Assembly: GCA_008632985.1 (NCBI GenBank)
Contig: QPGO01000044.1
Span: 186,001 to 250,000 of the forward strand
From: Psammoneis japonica
Lineage: Eukaryota
Direction: 5' to 3'
DNA length: 64,000 bases
Made by a program: the position numbers and the translations under genes. The notes beneath the pieces are model-generated. The model saw only the letters and a list, made by a program, of their open reading frames with translations. It searched no databases and had not been told where the DNA came from. Shown piece after piece: positions 4,330 through 61,600 of the stretch (position 1 is the stretch's first letter; each line of letters starts with the position of its first letter).

Positions 4330-4384
4330 AAATAGAAAAGAAAACTTTAAATTTTGTCATACAAAACAGCGTGCCTTCAGTGTC

Positions 4385-7288: not shown

Positions 7289-7369
7289 TGTGCTTTTTCT
7301 GTTTGATTTTTCACAAAAACGCATCGGCTTCTTGCGTCATTGTCTCACGCTTTCTTGTGTTATGTGTTA

Positions 7370-17430: not shown

Positions 17431-17446
17431 GAGTTGCTACCACGCA

Positions 17447-36683: not shown

Positions 36684-36715
<32 letters not shown>

Positions 36716-37500
36716 TTTTTGGGAGCTGAGTGGCTCAAGAGCAAAGCCACATCAATTGCACAAAAGCACATGGAGCCAAAAGCACACAAACCTGTGTTGC
36801 TGGCAATTGGAGTGATGAGTTGAAAACCCCTGCAAGGGGGGAAGCCTTTGTCATTTTGCATCAGCTGGGAAGTCAAACACAAGCAAACACAGGAAAGCAC
36901 ACCTCCAATCTTCAGTGCAGGCTGCAAGCTTCTTCTTGCAGTCATCCTTGTGGACCTTGCAGAGCTGGGGCGACCAGAAGAACAGCGGTCTGGGGTCGTG
37001 GATGTGGAGCAGCGGGCATGGCGCACTTGTGGCAAAGCTTGAGCTGGGGCATGCACGCACAAATTGTTGTGCACAGAGCACAGCAGAGACCTCTGAGTTG
37101 GGCAGCAGAGATCTCTGAGTTGGGGGGGGGGGGGGGGCTGGGTTGTCTGGTGACCCCCTGAGCAGGAACAGCTGCAAGGAGCTCGGAGCCTCTCAGCTGC
37201 TGGAAAATCTTGAAAGTCCCAATGGAGTCAATGCACCCAGCAATGAGAAACCTTGAACAGATCAGAGAACAGTTGCCAAGTTGGCACACCTGACCCGCCA
37301 ATTGCTGCAGCTGAACCAACCCAAGTGCACAGCAATGAGGAAGTCATGCAGGTGCTTCCACCAGTGCAGCGTGCGTTGTTGGGGCAATGACGATGTTGGC
37401 TGCTCAGCGGACAAAACAGTGGGCAAGGCCGCCAATCTGATGGAAGATTAAGATGAGCATGGCAAAAGAAAAATGACATCGGCCACAAAATGGTTTTGCC
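36000..37500. mobile_element. Degenerate repeat DNA related in reverse orientation to 26.3-27.1 kb
   Basis: Reverse complement of ~36720-36760 matches TTGAGCCACTCAG at ~26440; KVHKDDCKKK (minus, ~36950) versus KVHKDNCERK (plus, ~27020). Confidence 0.6.
36651..36713. repeat. (TGT/TGC)n trinucleotide microsatellite
   Basis: About 21 consecutive TGT/TGC triplets. Confidence 0.95.
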
Positions 37501-39914: not shown

Positions 39915-42900
39915 ATGGTTATCATGACGAGATGGACCGTTCTCTTTCCGGCAGGTTTGTTTGCACTTTCTTGTCGTGGAGGCATGGCGTCTGGTGAAGC
40001 GAACACCGCGCCTTATGTGATTAAAAAAGGTTGCAAAGAGGCCAAGTGCGCGGTTGACTTGTCCGATTTTACCTCTGGAGATCTCAGTGGCGTTGATTCC
40101 ATCATCTTCGAGCTAGATGGAGGTGACTCCCATACATTCAAACAGACGGGAAAGGTCATGCAAAATTTTTTCCATGGCGAAAACGAGAATAATGTGGATG
40201 CTATGAATCTGTTGGTGCGAAAGTTCCCGGAGAATGGCTCCGCTCTCTTGGTCGGTTCTATCTCTGTCGGGGAGAAAATCTACAAGATTCAGCCGGATGA
40301 GTTCGGAAACGAGAATATAATCGAGACCGATAGGGCTGACTATCCAGACGAAGCCGACCCTGAAGAAGTTGGAACTATTCAAGAGAGTAAGAAGCACAAG
40401 GTCGATTTTGATGGGCAACGGCGACGAAAGCTACTCCCTAATGATGATTCTGGGGGCATTATCGATATCATGGTTTTATGGACAGGATTAGCTGGTACGC
40501 AATCATCTTTCCATTTATGGTGTGTCTTTTGTTGCCTTGTTGCTCATCATCTTCTTTATGCAGAATGTAGAAATTCTGGGCTATCAATCGGTTGTACACT
40601 CACTGCTCAAACAAGGAACAACATGCTCACGCTAATCGACCTTTCAGTTGCAGAGACCAACACGGCGTACGACCTATCGGGCATCGAAACAAGCTTACGG
40701 CTTGTTCACGCCTATAGAGAGGCTTCATATGTCGAACTTGATTATTATACCACACTATACGATCTCAGGGGAACGAGTGACGGAAATATGGATGACGTAC
40801 ATGCGAAACGCATTGAGTACGGAGCGGATGTTGTGGCTATGCTTGTTGGTAGACAGGAATTTTGCGGTCTTGGCTTTGTGGGACCAAGATTTGATCTTAT
40901 GTTCTCTGTGACGAATTATTTCTGCTCTGCTGGATTTTTCACGTTTGGTCACGAAATTGGTGAGTCGCTTCTCTTCGCTCTCCCCGCTTCTTTTCAAGAA
41001 GAAGTTGGAATTGCACTTTAAGACTAACCAGTTTTTGCCTCTTTGATCTATTCTACAGGACACAACCAGGTAAGTCAAACGCATGCATTTCACTCCATGT
41101 AGGTTGACGAAAGCACGACTGAACATACAGCGACATAATCATTTGGATTCAAATAGGGATGCCTTCACGATCAAGGAACCGAGGGTGAATGTTCGACCAT
41201 AAACTATAACTACGGGTGAGTGCTAGTTCTGTCATTTTGATTTTGATGTGGTTTGATGTGCTAATTGAACACTTCCCTGGTTTTTCATTCTTAATTTCAA
41301 AAAGATGGAGAGACCCACAAGCACGCTTACGAACCATTCTAGCATACAACTGCGTAAGCGGTGAGTGCGACAATAACGTAGGGGGCGGTTGTACCCGGGT
41401 GCAACGTTTCTCTACTCCAGATAAATCAGTGAGTTAATTTTCGACGAAAATGCTGATCGTGTGCTTTTTGGTTCGAAGAACTTACAAAATTGCTTTTTTT
41501 ATGTTGCTTGGACAGTTTAATGGAATTGACCTTGGCAGCTCCACGGCAAACAATGTCCGACAGATCAATGAAGTAAAGGAGATAATTGCGGGATACACGA
41601 CAGCGATCACCCCGACGCCGCAACCGACCCCGTTCCTAATAACCCCTAGTCCGACAACGCCAACTGGCGAAGTACCGACAGGAGCATGCTGTTCAAAGTT
41701 TAAGAAAGAATGCAGCGTTACCACGAGGGCTAATTGCAACATCTTAGATGGTATTTACCAGGGCGACCGCAAGGTAAGCGACATAAACAGCTCGATTTAA
41801 AGTTGAACTGGTTTAGCTTCTAACGGGACCTCATCGTTTTGGCTATCTTTTGCTATCTCCAGCCCTGTGATCCTTATCGCTGCACGGTTGAAGGAGCTTG
41901 CTGTTTGTCGTCGGGAAGCTGTGAATCGGATAGCAAATTGTTCCGATGTGAAAACAAACTAGGTGGTGTGTTCCAGGGTTTCGGCACAAAATGCCAAGAC
42001 ACGTCATGCAAGGCGGGAGCGTGTTGTTCAAAATTCCAGAAAGAATGCAGCGTACTCCCCGAGGCTTCCTGTAGAAAGTCAGATGGAGTTTATCAAGGTG
42101 ATGATACGGTAAGAGCCACTTGACATTACTTTGAATTTCTTCAAAATGTTTATAGAACTCACTCCCCCTCCTTGATCATTTTTAGACCTGCAGTAATGGT
42201 CGCTGCTGTCTCGAAGGGGCTTGCTGCCTGGACTCGGGAGAATGCGTACCGAACGTCAAACGTTTTCGGTGCGAAAACTTTCTTGGCGGGACCTTCAAGG
42301 GCTTTGATACAGCATGCGAAGACAGCTTTTGTCCTGTCATTACTCCTTCTCCAACAATGAGCCCAACCACAACGGGGCTTACACCCGGAGCGTGTTGTTC
42401 GAAGCGCAGAAAAGAATGCTTAATTGACACAAAGGACTCTTGCGAAGCTTCTGATGGAGTTTTCCAAGGTGATGACACGGTAAGACCTGGTCACGTTATG
42501 AGCAAATGTGTGTGTAGCCTTTATTCTTACAAAGATCTGTGATTGCATCTTTGCCTTTTAAGCTTTGCGATGCGGATCGATGCGGTATCGAAGGGGCTTG
42601 CTGCCTTCCCTCGGGTGAATGCATTCCGGACAGTAGGCTTTATCGCTGTGAAAATACACTTGGTGGTACATTCCAAGGATACACCACAACTTGTACGGAC
42701 GGATTATGCCCCACGTCAGGAGCATGTTGTTCAAAGACTAAGAAGGAATGCAACGTGATCTCGGAATCGGATTGCAAGAATTCTGACGGAGTTTACCAGG
42801 GAGCCGAAACGGTAAGAGACCATTGAACAGAATCGATTCGAAGCAATGATAGGATTCTAACGGGGCCTCGGTCATCTATTTGTTACAAACTTTCAGGTTT

Positions 42901-43411
42901 GCAATGCTGATCAATGCTCACTTGAAGGAGCCTGCTGCTTGGATTCAGGGAGCTGCATCCCAAACAGGAGGATTTATAATTGCCAAACTCAACTTGGAGG
43001 TACTTTCCAGGGATACGGTACAACGTGTGAGGACGACTCGTGTCTCGTCACCAATGTGAAGCAAGGAGCATGTTGTTCAAAGACCGATAAAGTTTGCATC
43101 ATTGTCTCCGAGGAGTCTTGCGGACTCGTAGATGGTGTTTACCAGGGTGATGATACGGTAAGAGTCAGTGGCTTCATGCCGGTTTGTTGTTGAAACGTTG
43201 ATTCTAACATCGCCATGTCCACCCTTCTCCACCAAAGATTTGCGATTCTTATCGCTGCACTGTCAAAGGGGCCTGTTGTTTGGACTCGGGTGGCTGCGCT
43301 TCGAACACTAAGTCTTTTGAATGCAGGCAAAAACTTGGTGGAACGTTCCAGGGTTTTGGCACAAATTGCCAAGACAGCTTTTGCCCAGCCACGAGTACTC
43401 TTCAACTCTAG
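39915..43411 (+). CDS. Secreted metzincin (reprolysin-like/M12B-M72 type) with exon-encoded C-terminal GACC Cys-rich repeats; many introns
   Basis: Signal peptide; IDIMVLWT, RIEYGADVV, spliced FTFGHEIGHNQGCLHD; about ten GACC...C...(D/G)G.(Y/F)QG modules; TAG at 43409-43411. Confidence 0.85.
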
Positions 43412-43912
43412 ATAAAAGGTCAAGTTGATGAAAAGAGAAGAAAGTTAAAGAATGGCACGTGAGTTGACAAAACTTTGTTTCGTGTTACATTTATATGAAA
43501 ACGCTGATTAAATTGACATCAGTTAGTTTTAGATTGAGCAAATTTTACCTTAGTGAAGCGCGCATGAAGCGATGCAGTTATGTAACTAGGGAACTCGCCT
43601 GACGGATGAGGGGCGAAACGCTTGTTTGGAATTATGCTCAGGTCATGATAATAATCACAATCTACACTCTCCTTAGGAAAACAGTGAATCTTTCACGACA
43701 TGCGGGCATACACAACACGTATCGTACTCTATATATCTCTCAACTACCTAAGATAACACAACCCACCTTTTGCCTTTTTCCGTCGTACCACTAATTTAGA
43801 ACTGGCGGCCGACATCGCATCGAACTCTCACTTTGGTTGTTCAAAGTCACCATCATGGTCCAGTCCGGCACTTCCAATCACGAGCTACTCTTGAGCGTCC
43901 TGTCTATCGAAG

Positions 43913-44074
43913 TGAATAAATTACCCTGTAGTCGCATGAACTAGGGATAAGACTAAAAGAAAGGCTTGTAACATCGTGCTACTTTTCTAGAAGTGAAATC
44001 TAAACCTGGGGAACCGCCGTGCGCCCAATCGCCAATGACAAAGCACACCAAACTAATTGGAATTGATAACATGG
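43913..44074 (-). repeat. LTR-like direct repeat, copy A (3' LTR; retains TA/CG)
   Basis: TG...CA bounded (TGAATAAATT...GATAACA); homologous to 54121-54287. The true LTR may extend further. Confidence 0.75.
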
Positions 44075-45423
44075 TCGAGTCGGCTTGACCCAATTTACTC
44101 TCCGGCCGCATTTAGTCACTCTGGCGTGACAAGGAAACCCTGGCAACCTGCAACAACCCCATGGGCAAAAGGGAACCGGATGTGACAGACGACCAGTCTT
44201 CACAGATGCCATGGAGAAGCATGCCCACAAGTCCATCTTGCTTCATGCTGCCATGCATGATCTTGATTGCAAGATCTGCTGGATTGCATTCCAAACGAAT
44301 GTGTCCAGTGAGTGACTCACCCATTGCCACCGACTCTTGTGTGGTGTGGTGGCAAACAGAGTTTGACTTCTTCTTCAAAGTGGACTCTGGACTTTGTGTG
44401 TTGTGGACAACTGACATGTTGTCCCTGCAGATGTGGGGTGGACCAGCCAGCGGCACGCCCATCATCCTCAGTTTGTGTCGCAAGCCATGCAGAGACTCCA
44501 TGTCCTGCTTCATGGCTCTGCAAACTTGGCTCCAAAAACCAAGGTTTCAATCATGCTTTGGCACTTGGAAAACCACGTGATCAAGGCCATCTTCATGATG
44601 TGGATGAAGAAGCTGGTGCATGAGCGTCTTGTCAACTTGTCATTCACATGATCCAAGTTGACGAACAAGCACAGATCAACCTCCAAGCACAGAGGTTCTG
44701 GCACATTGGGTGGGATTGCTTCCTGCACGTCCCCATGAAATGACCTCCAGTCTCATTCTTTGAAGTCAGACATGTCAATGTCGGGATGTGTTGGGTTGAA
44801 CACCAACCTGGCATTGTGTCTTGCCTTGAGGTGTCCACAGACATGGAACATGGCCTCAAGGAGGTGACCCTCCCTGGGCACAGCAAGAAACAAGGCAAGC
44901 TCAGAAACCTCCATTGTCAGGTCGACACATCCAAGTTCCACTGTTCGTTGCAGGACACCCACCTGTGACTGGCAGACCATGCACCTGTCTCAGGACGACA
45001 GTCCCATGGAAATGGAGCTGATGCCTGACTTGGCAACGTCCGTCCAGGGTGGCATTTGTCCAGATGCACCTCCACATTCTTGATGGCCTGCTGGATGTGC
45101 TTGCTGGAGCTCATGCCCCATGCATGGATGCCATTTGGCATCTGCACCTCTCAGATGTTGGCACCCAGATGCATCTCAGGGTCGCCAGTTGAACCAGGCT
45201 TCATCTTGAAGCAATGATCCAACTCCTTGGGTGTGCTCATGGCATCGTGGTGTGCCATCAGTGCATCATCCATGTGCAGCAGTGCATGCACACAGTGCCA
45301 AAACCTGTCCTTGGGTTGGACTGCTTCCTTGAGCCATGCATCGGGATTGGCCAAGCAAGGCTTCCACCCAAGATGGTGCATGCAGGAGGCCAGGTGATTC
45401 CTGAAGGTTGCGCCTGTGCCTGT

Positions 45424-45712
45424 GCTCTTCAAACCGCAAAGTGTGTGCTTGACTGTCTCACACCTTCCTGCATTGTGTCCCAACTCTGGGCCCAGAGTCA
45501 TGGTGATCTTCTTGCTGTTGGGGGCAGCAATGCAAACACCCTCAATGTCAGTGGCCTTAACCTCCAAGCTCTTCAAACCGCAAAGTGTGTGCTTGACTGT
45601 CTCACACCTTCCTGCATTGTGTCCCAACTCTGGGCCCAGAGTTGTGGTGATCTTCTTGCTGTTGGGGGCAGCAATGCAAACACCCTCAATGTCAGTGGCC
45701 TTAACCTCCAAG
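45424..45712. repeat. 144-bp in-frame tandem duplication within the Copia RT
   Basis: GCTCTTCAAACCGCAAAG starts at 45424 and 45568; the copies are identical except for one CA/TG dinucleotide. Confidence 0.95.
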
Positions 45713-48700
45713 CAATTCAGAGCAGCCAGAGTGGAGGCAATCCTCACACTCTCACATGACACAATGCTGGCGCACATCAAGGTGGTGGGAGTGTCAGTGG
45801 TGCATCCACCAGCTGCATGGCATGCCTTGCACTTGAAGTCTTACAGCTTTACAGACCAAGTGACATCTGATGTGCTGGCATCCCACCAACTGCTTGTTGT
45901 CATCGATGATCTCAAACGCCTTGTCAACCACACCCATTTCCTTGTCTGCAGCATCTTGCCACATGCAGTTGCTGTTTGCCTGGTCAATCTTGACTGCCTC
46001 TTCATGCATCTTGGGAACATGCATCCTGCACTTGTGCACTTGCTTGTGATGCTGCTTGCTCACTGCAGCAATGATCTGCAGGCATTTCTTAAAGGTGTGT
46101 GGAACACACCATGCAAAAGCTGGTTCATCCTCAATTGATTGGGCTCTGGCACATTTGGCCGGTTCGACAGGGTTCGATTCCTTGAAGTCTGCAAGGCATT
46201 CCCATGTTGTGGTCCCATCCTTCCAGTGCACACAAAGGTGTTGTCCTTTGGTTGTCTTGTGCATGGTTTGGCATCCTCTGCTGTCCTGCAGAAGGTGGGC
46301 GTCATCCTTCTAGACTGCATGCCCATTGGTCTTGTGATCAACGACAGTGTCCAGAAGCAAGCACTGGTTGCCCTTGTTGTTGCATTGCATGGACATGTTC
46401 TCAGCTGTGACATTGGCCGCGAACTCATCTTCCTGGCCATCAGGAAATTTGACCTCATGTGCATGAGCATCTAGGATGGGATTGGCACTGGATCTGCCCA
46501 TCGGTGTTCCATCCAAATCGAGCTTGTGCCGTTTGACTGTCCCGGTTTGTTGGGTGTCCCCGCGTGGTGGCAACACTTCTGAGTTCACACAAACATCAAA
46601 AGCGGCATCGGGTGCATTTTCCTTGTCGGGTGCAATTGCAGGAGCCTCCTGGTTGGCATCATCTTCACGCGGATTGAAAGTGGGGGTTGTGGCATTGGGG
46701 TCATTGATGTCCTTGACCGTCACACCCGGACCTGGCTTGGCCTCTGTCAGCCCATCGAACTTCTTACGTGATGCCAAGTGTGTCTTGTGGCACTGTTCCT
46801 TAGGGCTCAAGGGTCAACAGGATGAATGGTGGATGACTTGTCCATTGTTCTTCAGCATCTTTGCCATCACAGCCCAACCTGTGCTGTGGCTTGGACCAAG
46901 GTGACGGCCTCAGACCTCCTTGTTCTCTGGGAATGAGATGGCTGTGTCCCCAAGCATGACTCAGTCACACCAACTGAACTCACTTGTGTGCAAAATGTCA
47001 GCTGTCTGTCCAGACACTGTGGTTTCTGGGACCTCTCCCTCCAACTCGTAAATGTCATGGACAGTGTAGAATCAGATGAGAGCTTCAAGCTCAAGACAAT
47101 CATCCCAAAGACATTTTGGGGATTGAGTCTTTGCCATCTTGTGTCCTGCACCCTGCTTGAGTTCACAAACAGTTCCCTCAGCAAAGTTGGACTGTGGGGC
47201 ATGCAGGGTTCAGTCTGCTTGATGTGGCAGTTGGCCTCCCTGGCCTTCTTGCTGAACTGACTCAGTGTCTGCTCCTTTGGCCCATCCATGATCATCATGT
47301 GGGGTGTGCCATCTTGCGCAAAGAGCAAGAAAAGTGCTTCATGTGCCAGTCCTTTAGATCTGAGGGAACAAGCCCATCCCCAACCATTGGACATGCCAAA
47401 GACCTGAGCACAGGCATTGCAACTTCTCAACTTGGTCTCAAGGAGATCAAGGCATTGGAGTGCATCTCCTTTGCAACATGCCTGTGCTGCAGCTGTTGGT
47501 TGTTGATCCAAAACCTCTGAGACAGTGTTGGATGAAGGACCATTTGCATGCCATGCTGCACCATGACTTTGACAGTGTTCTCAGCATCCTTGACACTGAT
47601 TGACCAATTCTTGGCCAAACGTTCTGCATCAATGTGCAGTCCCCACTTCATTGTCTTGAGTGAAGAGAGACTGATCAAGGCCAGCATCACATGGTCATCA
47701 TGTGCATGCAAGATGTCTTAAAGTGGATCTCTCTTGCACCATGGTGCATGAGAGCTTTGTGCTCATGATCTGGATCTGAGGATGCGCATTGTCCCTGGTC
47801 TCAGGCACATGACCAAGAGAGTCCATCATGGAATCCTCTCTGGCTTCAAAGTCAGCAGTTTGTGGGTCCCATTCTGGGGACTTGCAAGCAAGTTTTGCTG
47901 CCATGCCATCTTGCATGGCTGCCTCACACTCCAAAGCAGCAGGTTTGGAAGTGGGGGAGCAACTTGTGACCCCTTTGAGTTCCAACAGAATCAGGAGGTT
48001 GTCCCCATTTGCATCTGTTAACGTCACTGCATGTGACTTGCTGTCAGGCTTTGTCAGTGGGAATTTTGGTTGCAGGTTGACTCCCATGTCATTCAGCCAT
48101 GACTGTGGGACACAAAAGGTTGTGTTCAAGGTTCAGGACAGCATGCACTGCCTGGTGGACTGCCAGGATTCATTGTTGGCCCGAGGCGGGGTCAGCACAA
48201 GCAATGGCTCTGCTTGCAGTGTGCAGGCTCTTGTTGGCACCTTGTTCTGGGTTGCAACCTGTGACATCTGCTGGGCGATTGTGGTCAAGTGAAATTAAAG
48301 CAGGCTTGCCTGGTGCACTCATGTCTGCATGACCATCTAAGTCAGTGCAAGCTTCAGTGCATGTGGCTTCCTGCACGGTCATCTGAGTCATGCACAGAGT
48401 CCAAAGCGGGCTGAGACCTGGGGTTGGAGAGGATCACTCCTTCTCCTTCCTGCCAGGTTTGGGGTGTCCTTCAGAAACTGGAAGTTGGAGTGGTTGTGCT
48501 TCTGCTTGATGACAGGCCTTTTTGTGGTTTCCTTGGACTCACTGGCACTTTTGTCCTGCTGGTCCTCAACATGAGTGGCAATGGCTGCAACCACACTGGC
48601 AAGGGCCTTGATTTGTTTTGAGTTCTCAGCCACAGACATTGTGCCCTGGCCACTGCAAGAGTGTTGCACAGAGACTTGAGCTTCTTGTGAGGTTTTGGGG

Positions 48701-49499
48701 ACACTCGCTTGTGCTCCTTGTTGGGACAGTGCTTGTCCTCAACGTCTTTCTCATGAATGATGTCATTGCACTGGCGCTTGGCAGACTTCAAGGCAGCAAT
48801 GTGGAGCTTCTTGGTTTCACCATCCGGCTTGGACTGCTTGATGAAGTCTTTACAGAGGATGACACACCCATCAAAATCACTGTGCAGTGGTGTGCCAGCC
48901 ACAATTTGTGCTTTGATGGAGTCAAGGGATGCACCCTTGACACTGTCCACAAGGTGGCGCACCTTTGAGCACTCGTCAATTCCAGCACAGCCGCGCTCCT
49001 TGAGACCTTCAAGGACAGAGTGCTGTTTGACATGAACACACACCAAGCACTCGAAGTTCCAGTTTTGGCATTTGTCGTGGCAGGAAAGACCTGCTGAGCA
49101 CTTTTCAGCCGTGCTGGCCATGTCATCTGCGTTGTTGGGGCCCAAGAAGTGGTTGTGCCAATTCAGGTGGGCCATCCTGCCGTCCTGATTGTGCTGAGCC
49201 TTCTTGATGCATGCCCAACATGAATGTTTCCACGTGATCCCAGCAACAATCTCCCAAACCTTCATGTCATTGGCGGCAAATGTTTTGGTGGGCTGTGGGT
49301 CAGCCCCCTTGGCAAAGTGGGGGGCATGGGCAATCATTTTGGCGCAGGCATTGGCACAGCCGTCAGTTGTTGGCATCGTCGTCTGCCTCCGGCATCACCG
49401 TCTGAGTCCCTTGGACCATGCAGGCCAGGGGAATGTTGGTCTCCCTGCAACAAGCATGAAGATGCTCGTGGACAGCTTCCATCATCTTCGGCCAGTCCT

Positions 49500-52400
49500 G
49501 GCCTGTTCCGGCTCCAGGTGATCCGCAAGGGTTCGATTCCCATCATTTGCCCATTTTTGCATTTGGCGCATTGGACTTTTTCAAAATCCGTTTTTTGCCA
49601 AATCGAAGGGCAAGTGTGCACTTTACATGTATTTTCGGGTGTACAGTCTGCTCGCTCTAACATGTGCTGGGGGGCACACATGAAATTTCAGCACATGTTA
49701 TAGAGAGGGTGTGTGTTGTCCCTCCCTGGTGCAAATCTACGTACATTGATCCTGTGTGCAGAAACTGTGCAAGGTTTTGTGCAGGGCCCTGGCAGATCTT
49801 GCACATGCACCAGTCCACCAAAATAAAACAAATGTGAAAGGGCATCATTTGCAGGCAACGGGAAAAAAATGGTCTCCACACGGTGCAGTCGCCACCGGTG
49901 CTGTTGTGCACATGCGCGCAGCACAGTGGCCGTCATCGAACCTCTCGTCTGTCATCACTGCAGCACTCATTGGCACATTTCAAAGAGTCCCTCCCTTCAT
50001 CAATTCTTTGCTTCTGCCACAAAGACAGCCACCAGGACTGGTTCTCAGAGGTGCGTCATTGTCAATGAGGGTGTTTGGAGTCATTGCAAGTCTGGTCCAA
50101 TGGGCCTTCACCTCAAACATGGTCTTAGAACAGTGATGTCTGGCCTTCATCCACAAGGGTCAAGCCGGATTTTCAGCACATGTCACAGAGAGGGCACATG
50201 TTAAAAAGTGTGTGTTGTGGCAAGCAGACTGTGCACTCACCTTTTCATTTTCAAAAAGATCAAAAATGAAGGAGTTGAATGTGCTAAAATGTGATTTTCG
50301 GCTGGTGTCTCACTCCACATGAAAAATGCTTGTGATCGCTCACTTTTTCATTTTTCAGAGCTTGTGTGTTTGGTCTTCTTCAACTCAACTGACGTCCAAA
50401 CATGCCTCATTTCTACATGCACCAAACAGTTAGTTTGTTTGAGCATGCCAAAAAAATGTGTCCTCTTGACTTGCCATCCGTCTCATCCACCAGCCCTTTC
50501 GTTGCACAAATTTCAATCAAATTTCCAATCCATCATGGGGAAGAAGAGGAAGAAGCAAACTGGAGTTGGCCATTGACACAAGTCAGGGACTGGCAACAGC
50601 AAAAACAAAAAGCCTTGTTGTGAACTTAAAACACACTCCAAGGCCTCTGCCCAAGTTGATGCCGAAGCTGAAGGAGCTGCAGCCACTCCCTCCAACCCCA
50701 ACCATGACAATGCCACTGTCACTCCCTCCATTGCTCCCACCAACCAAGCTCCTTCCAACCCAAACCCCTCCACAGAGCACCCCACTCATTGTTCAGGGTT
50801 GTCCTTTCCAAGACAACCTGGCCCCTCCCAAATGCACACTGCAGGAGCAGCCGCCACTCCCTCCAACCTCACCTCTGACAATGCTGCCATCACTCCCTCT
50901 GTCACTTCTGCCAACCCAACCATCACTTCCGCCAACTGAGCTGCGCACCTCCACAGATTGCCCCACTTTCAATCCTCATGCATTTGAAGCAACCCACAAA
51001 GATCCACAACAAGCGCTGTGTCGTGCAGTGGTCAAAGCAAGAGAAGCAGTGTTGTCTTGCGCCACCACTCAAGAACAACAAATCTGTGCCTTCATGTGTG
51101 CTTTGCATTTTCCTGATTTAGCCCCACACGTTGAGGCTTGTAATTTGACACTGTCAAAAACAAATTCTGTGGCCTTGCAAATGACCCAGCAGTTGGGCAA
51201 AATGTGGGCACGTGCCAATGGCAACAACAATGGTCAACACCACCTTGCCAACAACAAAAAATCGTTTTTCCGTCCTGTGGCAATTGGAATCTCCAGTTCT
51301 CCAGAAAAACCTGCTGACGAGCCCAAATTGTCTTCCTTTGACCATGCCAATGCACTTGGCCTGAATCGAAACACTGTTTGTTGCCAAATGAAGCAGGGAT
51401 TCCCAAGCAGTGTCAAAAAATGAATGCAAGTCAATGCAGCATGTGTCAATGCGGTGATTGCACCAACGCAAATTTTCTGCAAGATGTGTTGAACAGGTTT
51501 CGAAGGAAGCTTTTAAAAGAGATGGAGGTGGAGCAACAGCAGTTGAAGGTTGCAAATGAGGATCCTGAAAACTCCAAGAACTGTGACCATGCCACTGGCA
51601 AATTGGAGGAAACAAAGTGTGGCTGTCAAGAGGAAGCGTTTGGCCCCAACAGCCATCACCTTCATCCCAAAGCCCGAGATGCAGTTGCAACCATCATTTG
51701 CGGCAATCTCAATGGTCAGGATCATCCTCATTGGAAATGCATTTTGGGTGAATGCAAGCATTGCCCATCCTGTCCAACTCCATTGTTGGAACAGAATGAA
51801 AGTCCCAGTGCTCCCCAAGTTTTGTTTCAACGTCACTTGACTGTAAAAAGTTGTTCCAAGCATGGCATGTTCATGGAAGCATGTCCTGTTTGTGAGGCAG
51901 ATCCAGATGGGAACCAGGATGCAAAGGTCAAATGAAGGACCTTGTTGACAAGGTTCTGCAAACCAGTCAGGGTCTTTACACAAGAGCACTGCATTCCCAT
52001 TCCAAGTTTAAAGAAGCTGCATTGCCACCTTCCCCATGTGGCAATTCTTGGGAAAAATCATTGCATGAAATTGCATCACAAAGCATTTGAGTCAATGCCC
52101 AACAGCATTTTCACATCTCATGACTGCTCTGAGCATCAGAAGGCAGAGTTTGACAAACAAGTTCAGGGTGATCATCATGGCAACAACCAAACATTGTCAA
52201 ATGGAGGAAGAGTTTGCGATGCAATGGTTGACAATGAGCTTCAGAAAACACATCATGCGCGTCTCTCTGACTCTTCCAAGCAAGATGCCACCACCACCCC
52301 TGCTCACTTGGAAAAGTTTGGCACCTGGTTAAAAAAGAACCACAACCTGTGTCATGCATGGCTTGTGATTTGGGATTTGGGATCACACCGATGGTTGTGC

Positions 52401-53045
52401 CAAACAGCACTGATGTGCTTTGGCACTGTGCTTGTTTTCTGTGTTTGTGCACAAACACAACATTGTGTTTGATCATGCCATTGGAGCACCTGGACATGGC
52501 AAAGGAGAGGTTGATGGAATTGGAGCCTGTGCGCAAACAACAACACAACAAATTGACTTGCTGAATTCAAAACAAGAGAATGCAAAGAGATGGTGTCATC
52601 CACAACAACAGCAACTCTGCAGAGCCGCAATTGCACTGTGACGACAATGATGCAACTTTGAAATGAAAGGAACAGAGGGTTCCACACAAAACCGCAAGGG
52701 CAAAGAGGGGGTTGCAGAGCGGTGACAGTGGTGTGCTGCATTGTGGCTGGTGTTGTTGTGTGTTGGGTGGATGGCACGTGTTTGTAGAAGTCAGTGTTGT
52801 TCTGCACATTGCCAGAAAAACACCAAATGCCAACTGACACGATTCTTCCTGTGACGCAATGTGCACCTTGGTTGTTGAAGATGAGCATTGTTGTCACAAA
52901 TGTGTGGCATCATTGGAGTGATCAATGTTCACAAAAAGCCAAAAGGTGCAAGCTCTGCTGGGTGGAGACAAAAATGTCTGGTGCTGTTGACTGCATGGAA
53001 AAACTACCATGATGAAAAGCTGATCACCTGGAGCTGGAACAGGCC
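49500..53045 (+). mobile_element. Cut-and-paste DNA transposon (Sola-like) with 24-bp TIRs and a 4-bp TSD (TCCT), inserted in the Copia gag
   Basis: TIRs 49500-49523 GGCCTGTTCCGGCTCCAGGTGATC and 53022-53045 (23/24 match); TCCT at 49496-49499 and 53046-53049; transposase relic with WDHTDGCAKQH*C and AIGAPGHGKGEVDG. Confidence 0.88.
51380..52640 (+). pseudogene. Degenerate DDD-type transposase of the nested element
   Basis: CILGECKHCP Cys cluster; DCSE..K.EFDKQVQGDHHG; LSDSSKQDATTT; TDGCAKQ; GHGKGEVDG; interrupted by frameshifts and a CGA->TGA-type stop. Confidence 0.75.
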
Positions 53046-54120
53046 TCCTTTTTGATGACAGCAGGCAGGGCCTTGGGGTTCTCCTGGGATGTTTCCACCT
53101 CATGGAGATGGCAGGGCCCCCACACTTGGTTGAGAGCAATGTCAGCAGCACACAGCACACATGAGATGCACTCACAGTGACAAGCAGCAAATGCAGCAAG
53201 CTTGAGATTCATCTCAGCCCGCAGCAATGCGGTCGTCCCCTGGTTGGGTTGTGGATTTGCTCCACCACCTGCTGCACCTCCTGGGCAATGTGCAACCTTG
53301 CATGAGGTCTCAACCTCACACATGGTTGTTGAGATCATGCAGCTCCTCAACTGCATTGATTCCCTGGTCTGTTGCAAGGGACACTGAAGCTTCATTCATG
53401 AAGTCCAGTCAGCAGCATGCAGAAGACATGACTGCAACATTGGCTGCCATGGTCAATGGCTTGGTGGTTCAATGTTGATGATGAGGAAACTCTTTCACAT
53501 GAGTTGTGTGGTTCTCATGCAAAAGTGAGTGAGTTGCACAAAGTTCAAATCACTTTTTCATTGTTGCATGTGAATCCGTTGGTTTGTTGGACCAATGTGT
53601 CCATGTTGAGACTTGTGTGTCTGCACAAACCAACATGTGCTCCCACAATCTTCCTGATCAATGCTGGTGGTGAGTGCAAAGCACTGTTTTGGGGATCATG
53701 CGGTGTGATCACATCATTGTGTCTGGACATGACATGTGAGTTTAGTGACCAATGGATGTCATGTCGTGTTAAAATCTGTGTGTGATGTTGTCACCCAGTG
53801 ATTTCAAATTGCTCAAACATTTGCCTCCAAGATGACTTTGGAATGGAAATTGCATCCCAAATCCATGGATTGTGCTCTGTGTTTGTGCATGTGTGCTGTG
53901 ACACATCAGAACAGACAATGCTGCAGTTGCTGTCAACAAGCATTTAAACTTGCACTGATTCTGGGAGCACAGAACTCGTCAAACACAAACACCTCTTGCA
54001 TTCGTGGGTGTTTTTTAGCCATCCCTAACTTTTGTGGAACGTTCTGTGGCATTGCAAATTGTTCGCAAGCAAAGATGATGCTCAGAATCATTGTGTTGTG
54101 TGGCAATGGCTCTGACAAGG

Positions 54121-54287
54121 TGAATGAATTACCCTGCAGTTGCATGAACCAGGGACAAGACTAAAAGAAAGGCTTGTGACATTGTGCCACTTTTCTAGAA
54201 GTGAAATCTAAACCTGGGGAACCACCGTGCAATGCACCTGATTGCCAATGACAAAGCACAACAAACTGATTGGAATTGACAACATGG
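54121..54287 (-). repeat. LTR-like direct repeat, copy B (5' LTR; hypermutated)
   Basis: Aligns to copy A; followed on the minus strand by CCTTGTCAGAGCCA, which resembles a decayed tRNA-Met PBS (TGGTATCAGAGC). Confidence 0.75.
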
Positions 54288-54289
54288 CA

Positions 54290-57200
54290 AATTCTTCAGA
54301 AGAGCGTGGCACACGCAATGGAGTTCGTGGAGAAAAGGTCAGCAGCCCAGTGTGAACTGACATGATGGTTGGTTGCAGCAGAGACCACTGCAGCAAACAA
54401 GGTGACATTTTGGCCGTTGCTCCCACAGCTCATTGCCAGCACCAAGCACTGTGCTCTTCTCATGGTGAAGGTTGGCAAACTGTTTGAAGGTGTTTGTCTC
54501 AACCAGTTTGCCAAACAAATTTGGAAGGATGTCTTCAATGAGTGCGCATCTTTTGCTCCCATGACACTCATGTTTGGCAGCAGCATCAACCCACCTCCAC
54601 ACCTGCTGCACTACATTGGTGGGTTTGGGTGCAAAAATTGGAGTTCCTTGATGAGTTTGGACTCATTTTTGCTGTGAGCTGTTTTGCACTCATGCACTTG
54701 TTCCCAGTTGCTGTTTTTTGGAATGGACCAAATGCAAGCTGTCACATTGCTAAATTGACAGGTCAACAAGGCCATGCACATGACAGTTGATCAGCACAAC
54801 ACAATGTGCTGTTGCCATGTTGTGAAATCATGTGGGCAACCCATTGCCCATCTGGCAATGGGTGCAGGCATGACCACATTCATTTGAGTCTCACAGTCAG
54901 TCTGTCACCAGTGTTTGACATCGTCAACAAGGTTTCAACCTTTTTGCATGATGAGTGTCACAAATGAGTGTTGAAAGATCTTGTCACCAACATTTGTGCA
55001 GCTGGTGCAGTGCAAACAAACAACAGCTGGGAGTGCAATGTCCTGGCATTGACAGCAATGCACAGCTTGATGGATCTGCTGGAGCAAGCAGCGCTGCTCA
55101 CCAGAGCACCAACAGCCAACCAGCTTCAGGTGAGATGACAGATTGTTTGCTTTGTGGCTTCACTCAACAAAGCATGGCTGTCACCACACATGACATTGTC
55201 AATGAAGCATCAAACTCTTTCCATGCTTGCAACAAGCTCAAGTTGCAGAAATTGGTGATCATGGCATTTGTCAGCAACTGCAAGGAGCATGATTTTGGAA
55301 GTTTTGACAAATGAACACAAACTGAGAAGTTCCAACAAATGAACATCAATGTTGAACAAAAGGGTCAGTTGTGTCCAATTGTTGCTGCCACATTGGCAAA
55401 GCTTGGTGCTCCAAAACTGGTCACCAACAATTGTTTGTGCTTGTTTGCAAAGGACAGTCCTGGTGCCACTGTGGGCAGCAGGGATCTCTTTGAGAGCAAG
55501 TGCAGCATTGGAAGAGCTCTCATCATGATGCATGACCATTTGGATTTGTTGCCTGCTGTTGCATTCATCCACAAGAAGTTTGCTGAACCAGGTGCTGTTG
55601 ACAACAACTGCTGTCTAGCTTGGCAAAATGCACCAATTTGCTGGACCGCTCCTTGTTGTCTTTTGTTGCATGGTTGTCTGCCAGGAAGAACTTGCAGCTT
55701 GACAAGGATCAAGCCAAGCTGGAAGAGTTGCAAGTTCACTTTGACAGACCCCACAGACTTTGCTCAACAAGAGCCACCACAACTTCCATTGCCAGACATC
55801 ATGAGCTTCATGGCAGTTGATTGTCTGAGCATCAAGAAGGCAAAAGAAGTGTGCACAGCATTGAGCACAAAAGGCACAAGGATGGAGAACACCTTTGTTC
55901 TGTCAAACCCAGCACTGTTCAATGCAGCAGGCATGTGCTGGGCACAGACTCTGTTCACTGGGACCATTTGCCACCTGCCAGTTTGAAACGTTGATGCCAG
56001 CCATTGCACAAAGCCAAGGGGGGTGCTGTGAGAGCTTTTTTGTTGCACTTGTTGTTTGGTGCAAACTTTGGAAACAGGTGCTCTTGATTGTGGAAGTGTC
56101 TTCATTGTGCAAGAAAGTTGGTTGTCATGTCACCAGTGTGACCAACAAAAAAAAAACATTTTGGCTTTGAAAGCAGTCACTTTGTTGTTTTCCATGGCTC
56201 TGTTGTCTGAGAAGAAAGAGCTGATGGCACATGACTGTCATTTGTTGGAGGAAAATGGGCCCATCATGTCTCCTCTGGTCATGATGAAAGATGACCAGGG
56301 ATTTCTCAGGGTGCACTTGGACTGATGTGAGACAGCCCTGTTTGTTGTGCCAATCATTTGTTTGTCACTGTTTCTTTTTTGTTTCTGAATCTGTTGCTCT
56401 CGCATCCACAAAGCTCAAGAGTGCAATCTGTGCATTGCACTGTGCTCACAACAAGAAATTGTTGCTTTGATTTGCAATCCAACTGAACCAATGCAGCAGA
56501 AGCAACGACTGCCTGGAATGTTGTGTTGATGCACACACAGTGCAAATGGCAGCAAGCTCCAGCTGATTGCAGTTTGTTCAAAGCAACAGGTGGATGGACA
56601 GGTGCTGGGTGCATTGGGTGTGCTGGCAGATTGGTCACTGCATGGGTGCACTGGTTTGTCATTTTGTGAGTGGGGGTGAATGAGTTGCCAGAGGGCAGAG
56701 GGCAGCATGGAATGGCTGGTGAATGGGCTGGCAGATGTGTTGAGACAGGCACAAGCACAAAGCTGGGTTGGCTGATGCTTCTGTCTTTGCTGTTTTTCCA
56801 GTTGCTGCTGCTCCTTGAGCTTCAGCTCACTCTTCATTTTGTCTGTCCTTTCTTGTTTTGCACACTTTCTGACCAGAAGCTTTGTTGAACATGATTGGAC
56901 AACATTGGCACACTGAAATTTCAACACATGAGTGAAGTTGTTCAACAGCACGCACACACAGATAAATGCGTGCATCATCTTGTTGAATGTTTGTGCATGG
57001 CAAAAATGTTGAATCAAACTTTCATCAATTCACCCATGCACATGAATGCAGCACATGAGGCACAGAGGAAAAACAGGTCATGCAAACATCATTTTAGTTG
57101 TGCAGTGCAACAAAGCAACATGTGATCTGTAAAATTGAACTGCAATCCCTGCACATCAAGGTCCAAACAGTCTGTGTGCAACCACTGCAGAGGCCAGTGG

Positions 57201-60200
57201 TGTTGGACATGCAGTGGTGTTGAAGTGTGCTGCTGTTGGCAGTGCTTGGGCCCTTTCATTCCAGATGTGTGCACAAGTTTTGGTTGGTGGAAATGAGTGA
57301 CTTATGCTGGTTGACCAGTGTCTGCTGTCTGGTGCCAATGTTGAGGCCACAGACATGCCAAAGTTAAGAGCAATTGACCACACCGCCCACCAGGAAAGGA
57401 GGAAGATGTGGCAGCAACATTGGAAGAAAGGCAGGAGAGCAGCAAACAAGAATCCCCAATGCTGTCTTTGCAGTCACCAACTTGTGAGCCACAAGAGCAA
57501 GAAGGCATTGGGAAGAAAGGGAGAGACAGAACAGAGCCAAGGCAATGAAATGGAAAAGGAAAGATCTGGAAAAGCAGAGGAACAGCACATGAGTGCAGGA
57601 GGAAAAGGCTGAAGACAAACAGGAGGCTAAAGACAATGCCAGCACTGAGTCACAAGATCCACCAGAAGAACAACTTTCCACTTCATCTGATGACAAGGAG
57701 GTGGACAATGCACCAAAATGTTCACAGGACAATGATGTGTCTCTGCTGTCTTCACCAGCTGCTGAAGGGGCTGCGTGTCTGTCCAAGCCATTTGCAAAAA
57801 AGAGCTGAGTTGACACAGAGACACTGTCATCATAAGAACAACAGATGCTCACAGTGCCAACTGAGAAAAGCACAGTGTTTGACATGGCTGGTGAAGCCAT
57901 GCTTGGAATCAATCAAGAGCAAAAGAGGTGGTGCCATTGTCCACACCAGGGATTGATGACCCCATCATGCACAATGCCAAGTCTGTCACAAAGGACTGTG
58001 TGTTGCCAGGCTGGCAGAATGCTGCATGCACCACCCAACAAAGACAGTGTCTTGCTGCACCAAAGAGTTCATGATGTGCAACACAGCAATGTCATGCACA
58101 ACAGTGATTTTGCAAAGCACATGCCAGACAATTTTGAGAAGAAGCCATCAAAGAAGCACCCAAACAACATGAAGTGCAAAGACCTGGTGTTCCATGAAGA
58201 GGCCTGGGGCAGGAAACTTGGCACCATGGCAGTTGCCAAGTGCTCTGCAAAGCATTCAGAAGATTTTGGGAGTGCGCTGAGTGCAAGAGTGCAACAAATG
58301 TCAGGTGAGTGATGCCTGCCATTGATTGCACTGTGTGTGCCATGCAACTGACATGCTTCATGCCACCATGCATTTGCACAGTGTGCTGGGCAAAAACACC
58401 CAAGATGGGAGCAAAAGATGCTGATGCAGATGGGGTGCTGGAAGAGATGTGGTGACTCCTGCAAAATGGTGGGGGAAGAACCCTCCAGGCAGGGAACTCA
58501 GCATGGATTTTTGTGGGCCTCTGCCTTTCTTTGCAGCTTTTGTGTTGCCACTGGAGAAAAGATTCTCCAATGAACAAAGCTGCATGTTGCTCATGTCAAA
58601 CAAAATCAAGCTCCACAACAACCTCCAAGTGCACACACATGGGGGAAGACACTGGCTGAGTGCACAACCACACAGGAAGTGGAAATGATCATGGTCATGC
58701 TGGACAATGTCATTGCAAAGAATGCAACAGATCCAGAAAAGTTCAAGATTGGAGCAAAAGGGCAGCTGTGGAGGGTGAATGACAGAAAGGCTAAAAAGGC
58801 ACCATCACATGGCATGGGGTGGGAGAAGCACAAGCAAGCATTGGATGAAAGTCATTGTGCTGAGGACACCAATGCACACCCAGACCACTTTGGCCTCCAA
58901 GAAGCCAGTGCTGCACATCAGAAGATGAAAAGAAAAGGGAAGAAGAGAGCTGTCAATGTGCCACTGGAAGCCATTGACTTGGTGTTTGGCATCCCCAAAA
59001 GTGGCAAGGAGAAAGTTTTTGGCAGCTTGGCAAACTTTGTCTTGTGAGTGTGAAAACAATGTTTGGCTTGCAAACTGTGTGCAATGAAAGCACCAAAATG
59101 ACAATAGAAACAAAATGCCGCTGATTGTGACAGCAGTGTTTTGCAAGCAGCCAAGCTCTTTCAAGTGACAGAACATTGCATGGCACAAGTCATGCAACAT
59201 CACAAATCATGTTTTGACCAATGTGAAAATTTTGCCCTGCTTCAACTGGTTTCAGAAATTTGTTTGCACCTTCCTGGCAGCACCATTTCACAAGAAAGCA
59301 CCACCAGGGAGTTGGGGTTTTGCGATGCTGCCCCAAAACACTTGTCTCCAGCTGGAGGACCACAACCATGTGACAGCACAAAGAATCTGAAAGAGTGATG
59401 GTTGCAATGGTCCAAAAAAGATGGTGGTTTGGACACCTTGTTCATGTGTTAATTTCACCATCATTTGCGATCTTTTCTTCTTTTTTCTCATGGCTGGCAG
59501 GCATGGTGTCACCACGACAATGGTCTGGTGTGCACCATCTGGAGTGTGCCCACCACACACCAGTTTGGAGCAGGCCCACAGCAAGCATTTTCTCCCAAAC
59601 ATGCACCCGCGTCATTTTGGAATTTGGAATTTTGTTCTGCTGCAACCCCACCACCATGCCACAACCACAACTTCAGCAATGGCCAATGAAAGTGACAAAA
59701 AGGACAACTGTTCAGACAGAAGAGCAATTCAAGAACTTGTTGGACTTTGCAGTGTGAAGCTGTTGGGTGACTCATTGCACAATGACTCAGCAGGTTTGCC
59801 GGGTGTGTCTCCAATGCCAAAGAAAAAAGCAAGGCAAGTGCGCTCCATCATTCATTGGGGCTGGATGTCAGGGTCAGTGGTTCTTTTTTGTGTGGATCTG
59901 GAACATGGGGGCAATGATTGCGGAGAGGCTCAGCTGATCTTTGTTGCTTGAAATTGCATGACGAAGTCAATTTTGGGTGAGCCACACATGCATTTGCCCC
60001 AGTCCCACATTTGCATTGGTTGGAAGAGAACATGAGTGTGCAGTTTGTTGATTTCAGTGAATCCCATCTTGACAATGGTGAGCAGACAAGCATCATCATT
60101 GTGTGGGGCAGAAAGTGCTGCTGGACCTTGCGGGGAATTTGACAAGAATGCAACTCCATTTTGACCACAAGGACAAGTGGAGAAGGCAGTGGCCCATTTT

Positions 60201-61600
60201 GGCACAAATTTGATGAGGATGTCAAGGGAGGAATCCTCTTGATCTTTCCTTTCGACAAGCAAAAACCTGCAACGGAAAAACATTGCATCATCAACGTTGA
60301 CTTTTGACAATGACACAGTGGTCAGAAGAAGATGCCAGCCCTTCTGTGTCACAACCTCCAATGCTGCAGTGCATCGCTGAAAAAGCTGTGTTGCAATCAG
60401 ATGTGGTGGCTTGGTTGTCACTCTTGGGTCCAAAAACTGCACCAGCCAGTTGCAAGCGAGACTCTGATTGGTTGCTTGTCCACTGTTTGCATGTGTTGCA
60501 GATCTGACTGATGACAAAATGATGTCCAAATGTTGCCATCCAGTCTGCGCAGTTTCAGCCCATGATCCTGTTTCCAAATTTCTTTCCTCACTTGCATGCA
60601 TGCATCCTGACAATGTCAAAGTTGCGGGGAGACCCCATGTGCTAAAATGGGTTGAACAGACTCAGCCCTTTTTTGAACCCTGCTTCCTGCTGGTTGAGTT
60701 GTTTGTTGAAGCTCTTGGAGATGGTGACCTTTTCAAGCATTGCCGCCCATTTCCTGTTGCCACAGTCATCAGAGTCAATTGCACAAGCTTGCCATGAGCC
60801 GCCATGAACAACCAAGTTGGGGTTGCATTGAATCCACGCACATCAACACCAAGTTTGTTGTTTTGATGTCACCAGAAAACATTTTCAGCAACTCTGCGAC
60901 ACTGCTTTGAGACAGAAAAAGCTGTGGGAAGATTGGTTGGCAGCAAATCAATTGCTCAGTTAACCAAACAACAATGTTGCACCCTTTCCAAACAAACAGC
61001 ACCACTGCCTGTTGGCACTCTAATGCTGCTGACTGCCACTGCATCAGCTGTTGCCATGCCTCTGCCAACCACCACACCAGCTGGCTGCTCCAAGGCCCCC
61101 AATTCCTGCACTGCCCAGCTGCTCCAATGCCTCCAACTTCTGCCGCGCCGCATCACAGCTGCTCCAACACCACCCACTCTCTGTGCAAACTGGCTGCTCT
61201 GGCCAAACTGGCCGCCATGCCACCTGGCCACTCCAACGCCACCGACTCTTGCACCACCTGGCTGCTCCATGCGGTGTGCTCCCATGCTGCCCAGCCCACA
61301 ACATTTGGAGATGAGTGCAACCTCCTTGTCTGCTGCTTGCACACAGACTTTTCCAAAAGTGCTCTTCAATCTGTCCAATGTGAAAAAAATGGAAATGCAC
61401 AAGTTGTGAGAATGGAGCACCGACAGCAGCAAAATCCAAGAAGGGAGTTTTCACCCATTTTTGGATTTTCTCTGTTGCAACACTCATGTTTTGTGCAGGA
61501 AAAAGTTTGGTGACAAAATCAAACAGCATCTGTGAGTCCATGTTTTCCATGGGTCATTGGACTCACGATGGAGAGTGTGTCCCCTCGAACTCATCGTCCT
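54290..61600. mobile_element. Further degenerate, unclassified TE-like DNA, TpA- and CpG-depleted
   Basis: Same dinucleotide signature; fragments of formerly coding sequence (e.g. 55339-55986, 59930-60619) with no family I can name. Confidence 0.55.

Follow-up and report, generated by a model that had tools for sequence, protein, structure and literature searches.

The window analyzed here, a 64-kb stretch of contig QPGO01000044.1 from the diatom Psammoneis japonica, contains five blocks of DNA that are strongly depleted in the dinucleotides TpA and CpG and enriched in TpG and CpA. The direction of change at TpA, its specificity for that dinucleotide and its restriction to the blocks are evident from the composition of the window and from a degenerate Ty1/copia-type retrotransposon in the largest of the blocks. 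The joint reading of these data, which is very probably correct, is that blocks of diatom nuclear DNA have been hit, in place and on both strands, by CpG decay together with a TpA-specific A:T>G:C process. An earlier reading, made from the letters of the window (the sequence-only reading), had proposed a transposon-targeted hypermutation of this type, polarized by a pair of putative long terminal repeats (LTRs), A and B. Its second, strand-symmetric TpA>TpG/CpA process acting on top of CpG decay is upheld by the codons of the retrotransposon and by the block composition described below, while its source of polarity and its account of the targeting are both replaced.

Extent and composition of the depleted blocks

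Dinucleotide counts in 250-nt bins, combined with the positions of individual TpA and CpG sites, were used to delimit the blocks within the 64-kb window. Over the whole window the observed/expected ratio (o/e) is 0.35 for TpA and about 1.5 for TG and CA. The five blocks together account for 30,384 bp, leaving 33,616 bp outside:

Block 1: 7369–9778; TpA o/e 0.06, CpG o/e 0.51
Block 2: 16303–17122 (820 nt); no TpA, CpG o/e 0.41
Block 3: 25539–31479; TpA o/e 0.05, CpG o/e 0.21
Block 4: 33739–37448; TpA o/e 0.02, CpG o/e 0.24; has inverted homologous segments in common with block 3
Block 5: 44114–61616 (17.5 kb); 66 TpA (o/e 0.06) and 200 CpG (o/e 0.19), TG o/e 1.87, CA o/e 1.86; both edges sharp

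The blocks and the remainder of the window differ in four dinucleotides. The o/e of TpA is 0.05 in the blocks (100 sites) and 0.59 outside them; about 92% of the normal TpA density of the window has been removed by the TpA process, and that of CpG is 0.23 compared with 0.93. Conversely, TG stands at 1.84 in the blocks and 1.19 outside, and CA at 1.85 and 1.14. Between the two compartments, all other dinucleotides stay within 0.18 o/e (from outside to blocks, AA changes from 1.18 to 1.21, AT from 0.90 to 0.86, GC from 1.01 to 1.19, and GA/TC from about 1.1 to 0.94). The sequence-only reading had named an absence of TpA excess over other A>G contexts as grounds for rejecting it; instead, TpA is the one A- or T-containing step that is depleted in the blocks, AA/TT and AT being among those spared. 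The frequency lost from TA and CG together (0.0762) roughly matches that gained by TG and CA (0.0853). Most block edges are sharp, extending over ~50–100 bp, with the left edges of blocks 1 and 3 more gradual.

These compositions bear on one of the candidate mechanisms named by the sequence-only reading, in which a Pol-eta-like polymerase with a WA>WG error spectrum would act during repair of T:G mismatches at methylated CpG. That TpA and CpG have been lost from the same blocks speaks for such a coupling. However, WA covers AA as well as TA, and the AA/TT steps are unchanged. In block 1, moreover, the two losses are uncoupled, TpA having fallen to 0.06 while half of the CpG is kept (0.51), and in the alga Bigelowiella natans a TpA process is described with GC>AT changes near zero in the same regions (bioRxiv 10.64898/2026.01.13.699255, in the text available). 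The candidate is disfavored by these comparisons, and we consider it improbable.

Direction of change in a copia remnant and a repeat pair

The direction of the TpA change can be read from the retrotransposon remnant in block 5 and from the features associated with it:

Degenerate Ty1/copia-type polyprotein gene: 44114–48500, minus strand; integrase-to-reverse transcriptase (RT)/RNase H part, with stops and frame hops
In-frame stretch P0121: 45797–47200, minus strand; 468 aa, with 5 stops read as X, used as the search query
Second copia RT fragment: 29264–29727, plus strand; in block 3, found by tblastn
LTR copy A: 43913–44071, minus strand; 159 nt with TG...CA ends and normal composition, on the RNase H/RT side of the minus-strand copia remnant
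LTR copy B: 54121–54284, minus strand; 164 nt with TG...CA ends, within depleted block 5
Tandem duplication in the RT region: 45419–45713; 2 × 144 nt, 99% identical, with 6 mismatches, 4 of them as two TG<->CA pairs

Translation of the minus strand of 44.1–50.2 kb in each frame revealed a long degenerate reading frame, of which P0121 is the in-frame part. P0121 matches 5078 proteins at E ≤ 0.001 (best match P0122, 5.8e-107), and in the homologues P0122, P0129 and P0131 an RVT_2 domain lies directly downstream of the matched part. A tblastn search with 150 homologues placed the remnant at about 44.0–48.5 kb on the minus strand; no Pfam family scored in the copia copy of the window itself. The copia-type pol homology with its RVT_2-bearing homologues, the direct TG...CA repeats and a pol orientation that suits copy A as the 3′ LTR all agree, and judged from this homology copy A is bordered by the 3′ portion of a dead copia element and takes the position predicted for its 3′ LTR.

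The homologues provide an outgroup against which 475 codons of the remnant could be scored, each represented in 8 or more homologues and having a consensus of 60% or higher. Comparison with a family consensus, proposed in the sequence-only reading as the check on polarity, was thereby made on the interior protein rather than on the LTR, and it came out in favor of TpA loss: at the 24 codons where the consensus is Tyr (TAY), the window has His (CAY) at 13, Cys (TGY) at 11 and Tyr at none. This replacement of Tyr by His or Cys at every conserved codon means that TpA has been lost in the window element, on both strands. The same columns are stable in the family, with Tyr in 716 of 874 cells across 77 homologues and His or Cys in 28. 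The overall composition of P0121 (Tyr 0.4%, Cys 4.5%, His 6.0%) compares with family medians of 3.4, 1.4 and 2.6, respectively, and in the block 3 RT fragment both of the two conserved Tyr codons are read as Cys/His.

The CpG-containing codons have also decayed. The 36 conserved Arg codons are read in the window as Arg (13), His (7), Gln (7), Cys (6), Lys (2) and stop (1), and 9 of the 13 that are retained are AGR. Other conserved residues have largely been kept (Lys at 21 of 22 codons, Glu at 23 of 26, Asn at 10 of 11 and Gly at 38 of 44). In total, the remnant differs from the consensus at 155 amino acids, of which 36 are explained by one TA>TG/CA step, 45 by one CG>TG/CA step and 74 by neither.

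The repeat pair presents the same sequence in two states, with copy B inside block 5 and copy A in normal DNA, the block starting 43 nt past its end. The counts given for the pair in the sequence-only reading are reproduced exactly: copy A has 12 TpA and 6 CpG, copy B has 4 and 1, 8 TpA and 5 CpG of copy A appear as TG or CA in copy B, and copy B has no new TpA relative to copy A. The single differences at copy-A TpA (43918, 43929, 43942, 43948, 43970, 43980, 44055 and 44067) have given CA five times and TG three times, those at copy-A CpG lie at 43933, 43975, 44016, 44023 and 44030, and the remaining differences are an adjacent double CA>TG (44026–44027), one transversion (44048 C>A) and a 5-nt indel. 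TpA holds 24 of the 93 A/T bases of copy A and takes all 8 single A:T>G:C changes (hypergeometric P = 7.2e-6); CpG holds 12 of its 66 G/C bases and takes all 5 single G:C>A:T changes (P = 8.9e-5). When the homology is followed further (43903–44075 and 54111–54288, 173 aligned bases), 21 mismatches are found, made up of 9 TA>TG/CA, 6 CG>TG/CA, one TG<->CA pair (2 bases), 2 other transitions and 2 transversions, so that 15 of the 21 fall on the 40 bases located in TA or CG (P = 5.4e-7). Recoded as purines and pyrimidines, A and B have an identity of 96.1% across 178 columns.

The sequence-only reading had taken its polarity from this pair, on the grounds that LTRs are identical at insertion. Two copies alone give no polarity, and the direction of the A/B differences would instead follow from the protein outgroup and the block-wide composition. 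Nor is it established that A and B are the two ends of one insertion, there being roughly a dozen copies of the family and no target-site duplication found for the pair (the 5 nt to the left of A are CGAAG, and those to the right of B are TGGCA). The 10-kb A–B interior contains other, highly repeated sequence. Joints in the reads of sequencing run X1 (see below) show that the right flank of copy B is similar to the internal, LTR-adjacent sequence of the family and that, beyond the LTR, other family copies run on differently from the window. Beside copy B lies a putative primer-binding site, similar to the initiator-tRNA-Met site of copia elements with one TA>TG change; the window contains no tRNA gene for comparison.

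With the direction left free at each site, C>T or G>A changes would describe all 13 single differences of the pair. Cytosine deamination would then suffice, copy A having gained TpA by C>T changes at CpA/TpG similar to those of fungal repeat-induced point mutation (RIP) and copy B having lost CpG by decay of 5-methylcytosine (5mC). The TpA/ApT ratio of copy A, 1.09 compared with 0.64 in nearby normal DNA, fits this account. The TAY>CAY/TGY changes at all the conserved Tyr codons adjoining copy A do not, and the TpA o/e of the blocks is beyond any C>T process. Furthermore, the (CpA+TpG)/(ApC+GpT) ratio of copy A is 1.11, which shows no depletion and is not RIP-like, and related copia elements in metagenomes retain a TpA o/e of 0.47–0.99 (the 80 best-scoring of 575 confirmed matches, a sample in which decayed copies are under-represented). 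A related copia element on a 4250-nt metagenome contig (L002), with a CpG o/e of 0.01, a TpA o/e of 0.47 and TG/CA at only 1.51, shows that CpG decay occurs in nature with TpA retained. An explanation from cytosine alone is thus very hard to sustain. A search of metagenome contigs for close relatives of P0121 gave 68 pattern matches, none of them confirmed. As a separate observation, one homologue, P0197 (293 aa), has 0.7% Tyr with both Cys (3.4%) and His (3.8%) raised; a partly hypermutated copy from a different data set is its possible source.

A further mark of the process is found where repeats within the blocks are compared with each other. Adjacent double differences of the TG<->CA type are expected where an ancestral TA or CG has become TG in one copy and CA in the other, and in repeat pairs inside the blocks they number 19 in 339 aligned nt, 7 in 141, 10 in 187 and 8 in 110, compared with 4 in 649, 2 in 651 and 8 in 841 for repeat pairs in normal DNA. 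They bear on the idea that the composition is intrinsic, the blocks being foreign or selected DNA in which TpA and CpG were absent from the start, an idea consistent with the failure to find a homologue or Pfam family for most of the block DNA. The double differences between copies are, however, those of decay after duplication; the same LTR is present in both states, Tyr codons have been specifically replaced, and the balance between TA+CG loss and TG+CA gain fits conversion. Taken together, these observations leave an intrinsic origin with next to no probability.

Targets, gene content and read support

The process is strand-symmetric. The near-equal division of the Tyr codons between His and Cys is matched by the totals of TG (3573) and CA (3429) in the blocks, the local TG/CA skew is near binomial (standard deviation of z = 1.21 over 58 bins), and no strand-coordinated clusters of TG or CA were seen over the same 58 bins. 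Such symmetry excludes editing of the RNA or cDNA of the element. The alternative that this addresses, in which ADAR-like edits on the transcript would be fixed by reverse transcription and re-insertion, draws on the element being a retrotransposon and on the preference of ADARs for a U before the edited A (bioRxiv 10.64898/2026.01.13.699255, in the text available). It predicts only coding-strand A>G changes (Tyr>Cys), whereas 13 of the 24 codons have gone from Tyr to His, a T>C change as seen from the coding strand; in addition, the block edges sit in place, cutting between LTR A and the interior, and the most depleted DNA of all is single copy. On these grounds it is hardly credible.

That last point also bears on how the process is targeted, for which two intervals within block 5 are informative:

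Near-normal TpA/CpG island inside block 5: 49600–49760; summed X1 depth 4860, compared with ~60–70 for single-copy DNA; the most repeated stretch of the window
Single-copy part of block 5: 54300–61400; TpA o/e 0.03, CpG o/e 0.11; the most depleted stretch, without a recognizable gene or transposon

In X1 the region 43.8–53.2 kb is multi-copy, with a summed depth of about 180 to 4860. By comparison, 54300–61400 has a depth of 67–105, against 60–70 for its single-copy flanks, and is single copy at a likeness of at least 85%, a threshold below which older duplicates are possible. Single-copy DNA is therefore affected, and the process is independent of repetition. The sequence-only reading had it aimed at transposons; it follows the block instead, since the 7.1-kb single-copy stretch is the most depleted and copy A, part of the same element as the remnant, has been spared. 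The 49600–49760 island may have been inserted too recently for mutation to have reached it; loose read ends are present within it, at 49645.

The sites that survive in the blocks, and the products formed at those that do not, suggest a dependence on flanking bases. Surviving TpA is enriched in the contexts TTAA (5.7×) and CTAA (3.4×) and poorly represented in ATAT (0), ATAC (0.16×), ATAG (0.19×) and GTAC (0.22×). Which product forms at a Tyr codon varies with the base before it, R-TAY having given His 11 times and Cys 3 times and Y-TAY having given Cys 8 times and His twice (Fisher P = 0.011). Among amino-acid-changing TA sites with informative contexts, which were ascertained through protein-visible changes only, 13 of 16 fit a 5′-TAY-3′ preference for the mutated A (P = 0.02). 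The base that is attacked could alternatively be thymine. In dinoflagellates, 5-hydroxymethyluracil (5hmU) is enriched at TpA, and if a TET/JBP-like enzyme modified T at TpA (to 5hmU or a derivative), then mispairing with G or misrepair would give T>C, which is indistinguishable by sequence from A>G on the opposite strand. The flank preference is not decisive, being TAY for adenine or RTA for thymine alike. Our analysis found no support for thymine modification in diatoms, and we regard a thymine target as unlikely, if worth keeping in view.

The gene content of the window follows the same division. Outside the blocks there are 16 long open reading frames (ORFs), among which are ordinary eukaryotic host families. 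A 671-aa amino-acid transporter ORF (21540–23552) has 245 matches, the best 56% identical, and the organisms named among the 120 listed are all diatoms. Inside the blocks, the 40 ORFs of at least 150 aa gave no Pfam family, the 88 block 5 ORFs of 75–149 aa gave four matches, all under the curated cut-offs (E 0.0018–0.0082), and a 223-aa ORF in the single-copy part (55315–55983) had 174 candidate homologues, none at E ≤ 0.01. TAA and TAG are nearly absent from the blocks and TGA is almost the sole remaining stop; long spurious ORFs consequently occur on both strands, with 32 of at least 150 aa between 43 and 63 kb.

Several features of the DNA around the blocks were also noted. Block 5 is flanked by inverted paralogous genes of ~340–380-nt tandem repeats (41677–43403 and 62615–64000), about 78–88% identical to each other in purine/pyrimidine coding, and an ORF on the minus strand at 61864–62811 carries a DUF6923 repeat. 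The inverted homologous segments of blocks 3 and 4 (26381–27242 and 36145–37480) bracket a normal ankyrin-repeat ORF (32029–33345). Directly after block 2, 17123–17750 has 7 TpA in about 630 nt yet is CpG-rich (25 per 250 nt); it overlaps a 277-aa ORF on the minus strand (17054–17884) in which no Pfam family was found. Three 66-nt tandem repeats at 20857–21089 encode a Lys/Glu-rich stretch within a 431-aa ORF (19779–21071).

Finally, the letters themselves were compared with three public sequencing runs from one sample (X1, X2 and X3). Contigs built from X1 31-mers at a depth of about 55–67 match the window exactly over long pieces, and one of 7182 nt spans 54194–61374 with two differences, both T>C (TA>CA at 54612 and TG>CG at 59265), which may be allelic. 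X2 covers the normal flanks only, with nothing at 43.8–60.5 kb, X3 contributes no cover, and no conclusion is drawn from these gaps. Among the 40 listed of 725 read differences, other copies have CG in 8 cases and TA in 3 where the window has TG/CA, and the reverse is seen for CG in 3 and TA in 1, a listing too selective to give polarity.

These contigs address whether the depletion could be an artefact of sequencing or assembly, with TA and CG truly present and modified heterochromatin bases (5mC, modified T or A) miscalled. A palindromic miscall from both strands would likewise give a random mix of TG and CA, and the platform of both the assembly and X1 is off record. Against this, X1 reproduces kilobases exactly, and clean 31-mer contigs at this depth suggest that the reads are accurate (short reads or HiFi), a type of base call unaffected by such modifications. 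The blocks also hold indels, frame hops and the 74 unrelated amino-acid changes, like old dead DNA. An artefact is accordingly very improbable. The confirmation by independent reads advised in the sequence-only reading has in this way been obtained in part: the X1 contigs show the same letters, although X1 may be the assembly's own data.

Mechanism and comparison with known systems

In the reading we favor, about half of the window would consist of sharply bounded, gene-free, repeat-rich blocks, one of them holding a dead Ty1/copia element with LTRs A and B, and two processes, both close to completion in the blocks, would have acted on this chromosomal DNA, in place. The first would be ordinary CpG>TpG/CpA decay, presumably due to 5mC deamination. 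The second would convert TpA to TpG, a change that appears as TpA>CpA when it falls on the opposite strand, and would be enzymatic and aimed at silenced or foreign chromatin. As to its chemistry, we tentatively propose that a TadA/ADAT-like DNA deaminase with a preference for 5′-TAY-3′ turns adenine into hypoxanthine, which is then read as G; the case for this candidate is close to balanced.

Several observations weigh against this reading. The raised TpA/ApT ratio of copy A is also what a TpA-creating process in A would produce, and the polarity of the LTR pair itself follows only by extension from its surroundings. Copy A has been spared with saturated interior beginning 43 nt past its end, for which our explanation does not account. 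The TAY preference is weak when applied to the products in the A/B pair, where three sites fit and three do not. Nearly half of the amino-acid differences of the remnant (74 of 155) are explained by neither the TA nor the CG process. The silencing of the blocks is suggested by their composition and content alone, and, with X1 possibly the assembly's own data and its platform off record, the support for the letters may be only partly independent.

A broader proposal, which goes further than the data and which we consider doubtful although possible, is that diatoms possess a repeat-independent, chromatin-guided DNA-editing defense, in which silenced blocks are the target of a nuclear deaminase acting on 5′-TAY-3′ adenines of either strand. 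If this were true, the same enzyme or complex might also act on cytosine at CpG; together with CpG decay, both self-complementary YpR steps would be erased and transposons or invading DNA irreversibly killed; and the system would be a functional counterpart of fungal RIP with the opposite chemistry. It would also be old and widespread in SAR lineages, given the activity of this spectrum in a rhizarian alga.

The sequence-only reading knew of no genome-defense system with such a spectrum; one has since been described. In our search of the full-text literature, a TpA-destroying nuclear process was found in one report only, the 2026 preprint on B. natans (Mettrop et al., bioRxiv 10.64898/2026.01.13.699255). 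According to the text available, 231 of 302 nuclear point mutations in mutation-accumulation lines fell in integrated NCLDV and virophage regions, and 230 of these 231 were A>G or T>C, every one of them at TpA, at a rate of about 6e-7 per site per generation, about 1000-fold over background, with the mutations present in some lines only. The preprint also describes clusters poor in TpA and rich in CpA+TpG, finds reverse transcriptase and DDE domains over-represented among TpA-poor coding sequences, names an ADAT2-like protein as candidate, and cites DNA editing reported for amphioxus ADAT2; CpG, diatoms and flanking context are not mentioned in the part of its text available.

By these comparisons, the TpA process in P. 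japonica appears to be of the same kind. It too is confined to TpA among A:T>G:C changes, giving TpG or CpA, and occupies discrete regions beside normal host genes; the long-term depletion of TpA is coupled to a gain of CpA+TpG, and single-copy DNA can be hit. The part of the block DNA with a recognizable non-host origin is the copia remnants in blocks 3 and 5. The two cases differ in that de novo mutations were measured in the rhizarian alga, whereas in the diatom we have the footprint alone, and in extent, the TpA o/e of the blocks being 0.02–0.06 compared with a Rho of 0.45 in the NCLDV region of B. natans. The CpG decay, the flank preference and the sharp edge at the LTR seen here are undescribed in the available text of the preprint. 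What is new in the present window is thus the diatom host, the near-saturation, the co-occurring CpG decay, the hit single-copy stretch and the 5′-TAY-3′ preference.

For diatoms, the same literature search yielded no report of such a process. A 2025 preprint on diatom transposons makes no mention of TpA, dinucleotides, hypermutation or RIP, and a mutation-accumulation paper on Phaeodactylum reports, in the portion of its text available, a GC>AT bias with CG, CC and TG as mutable contexts and no TpA process. LTR retrotransposons of Phaeodactylum are CpG-methylated (Maumus et al. 2009, PMC2806351, as given in the text available), which fits the CpG half of the footprint. Decay driven by 5mC would account for the CG>TG/CA changes here and for the replacement of Arg by His, Gln and Cys; it cannot remove TpA, as the retention of TpA in the CpG-depleted element L002 illustrates.

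A TpA-destroying process is therefore probably not peculiar to one alga. It affects retrotransposons and single-copy DNA alike and is open to study in diatoms, a group of great ecological importance in which model species can be transformed. A TpA o/e below 0.1 with TG/CA near 1.9 can serve as a compositional detector, replacement of Tyr by His or Cys as a read-out at the protein level, and TAY as a candidate sequence preference to be matched by any enzyme put forward. Annotation is affected as well, in that transposons in such blocks escape domain searches and long spurious ORFs arise.

Among deaminase systems, APOBEC and ADAR editing of animal retroelements is similarly a hypermutation driven by a deaminase and read as host defense. 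It acts on cDNA or RNA and leaves a strand-asymmetric footprint, whereas here both strands are equally affected and DNA other than retroelements has been hit too. The TadA and ADAT2-ADAT3 tRNA adenosine deaminases resemble the proposed activity more directly, in that adenine is deaminated and read as A>G, and the adenosine they target in the anticodon loop is preceded by U; action on chromosomal double-stranded DNA and aiming at blocks are not explained by this likeness. With fungal RIP the process shares the in-place mutation of silenced or selfish DNA in distinct blocks, the destruction of coding capacity and a dinucleotide footprint. RIP, which is not known outside fungi, changes C to T mostly at CpA, creates TpA and requires duplicated sequence. 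In the diatom window the most affected stretch is a 7.1-kb single copy, TpA is destroyed, and the indices of block 5 (TpA/ApT = 0.07 and (CpA+TpG)/(ApC+GpT) = 1.92) are the opposite of those left by RIP.

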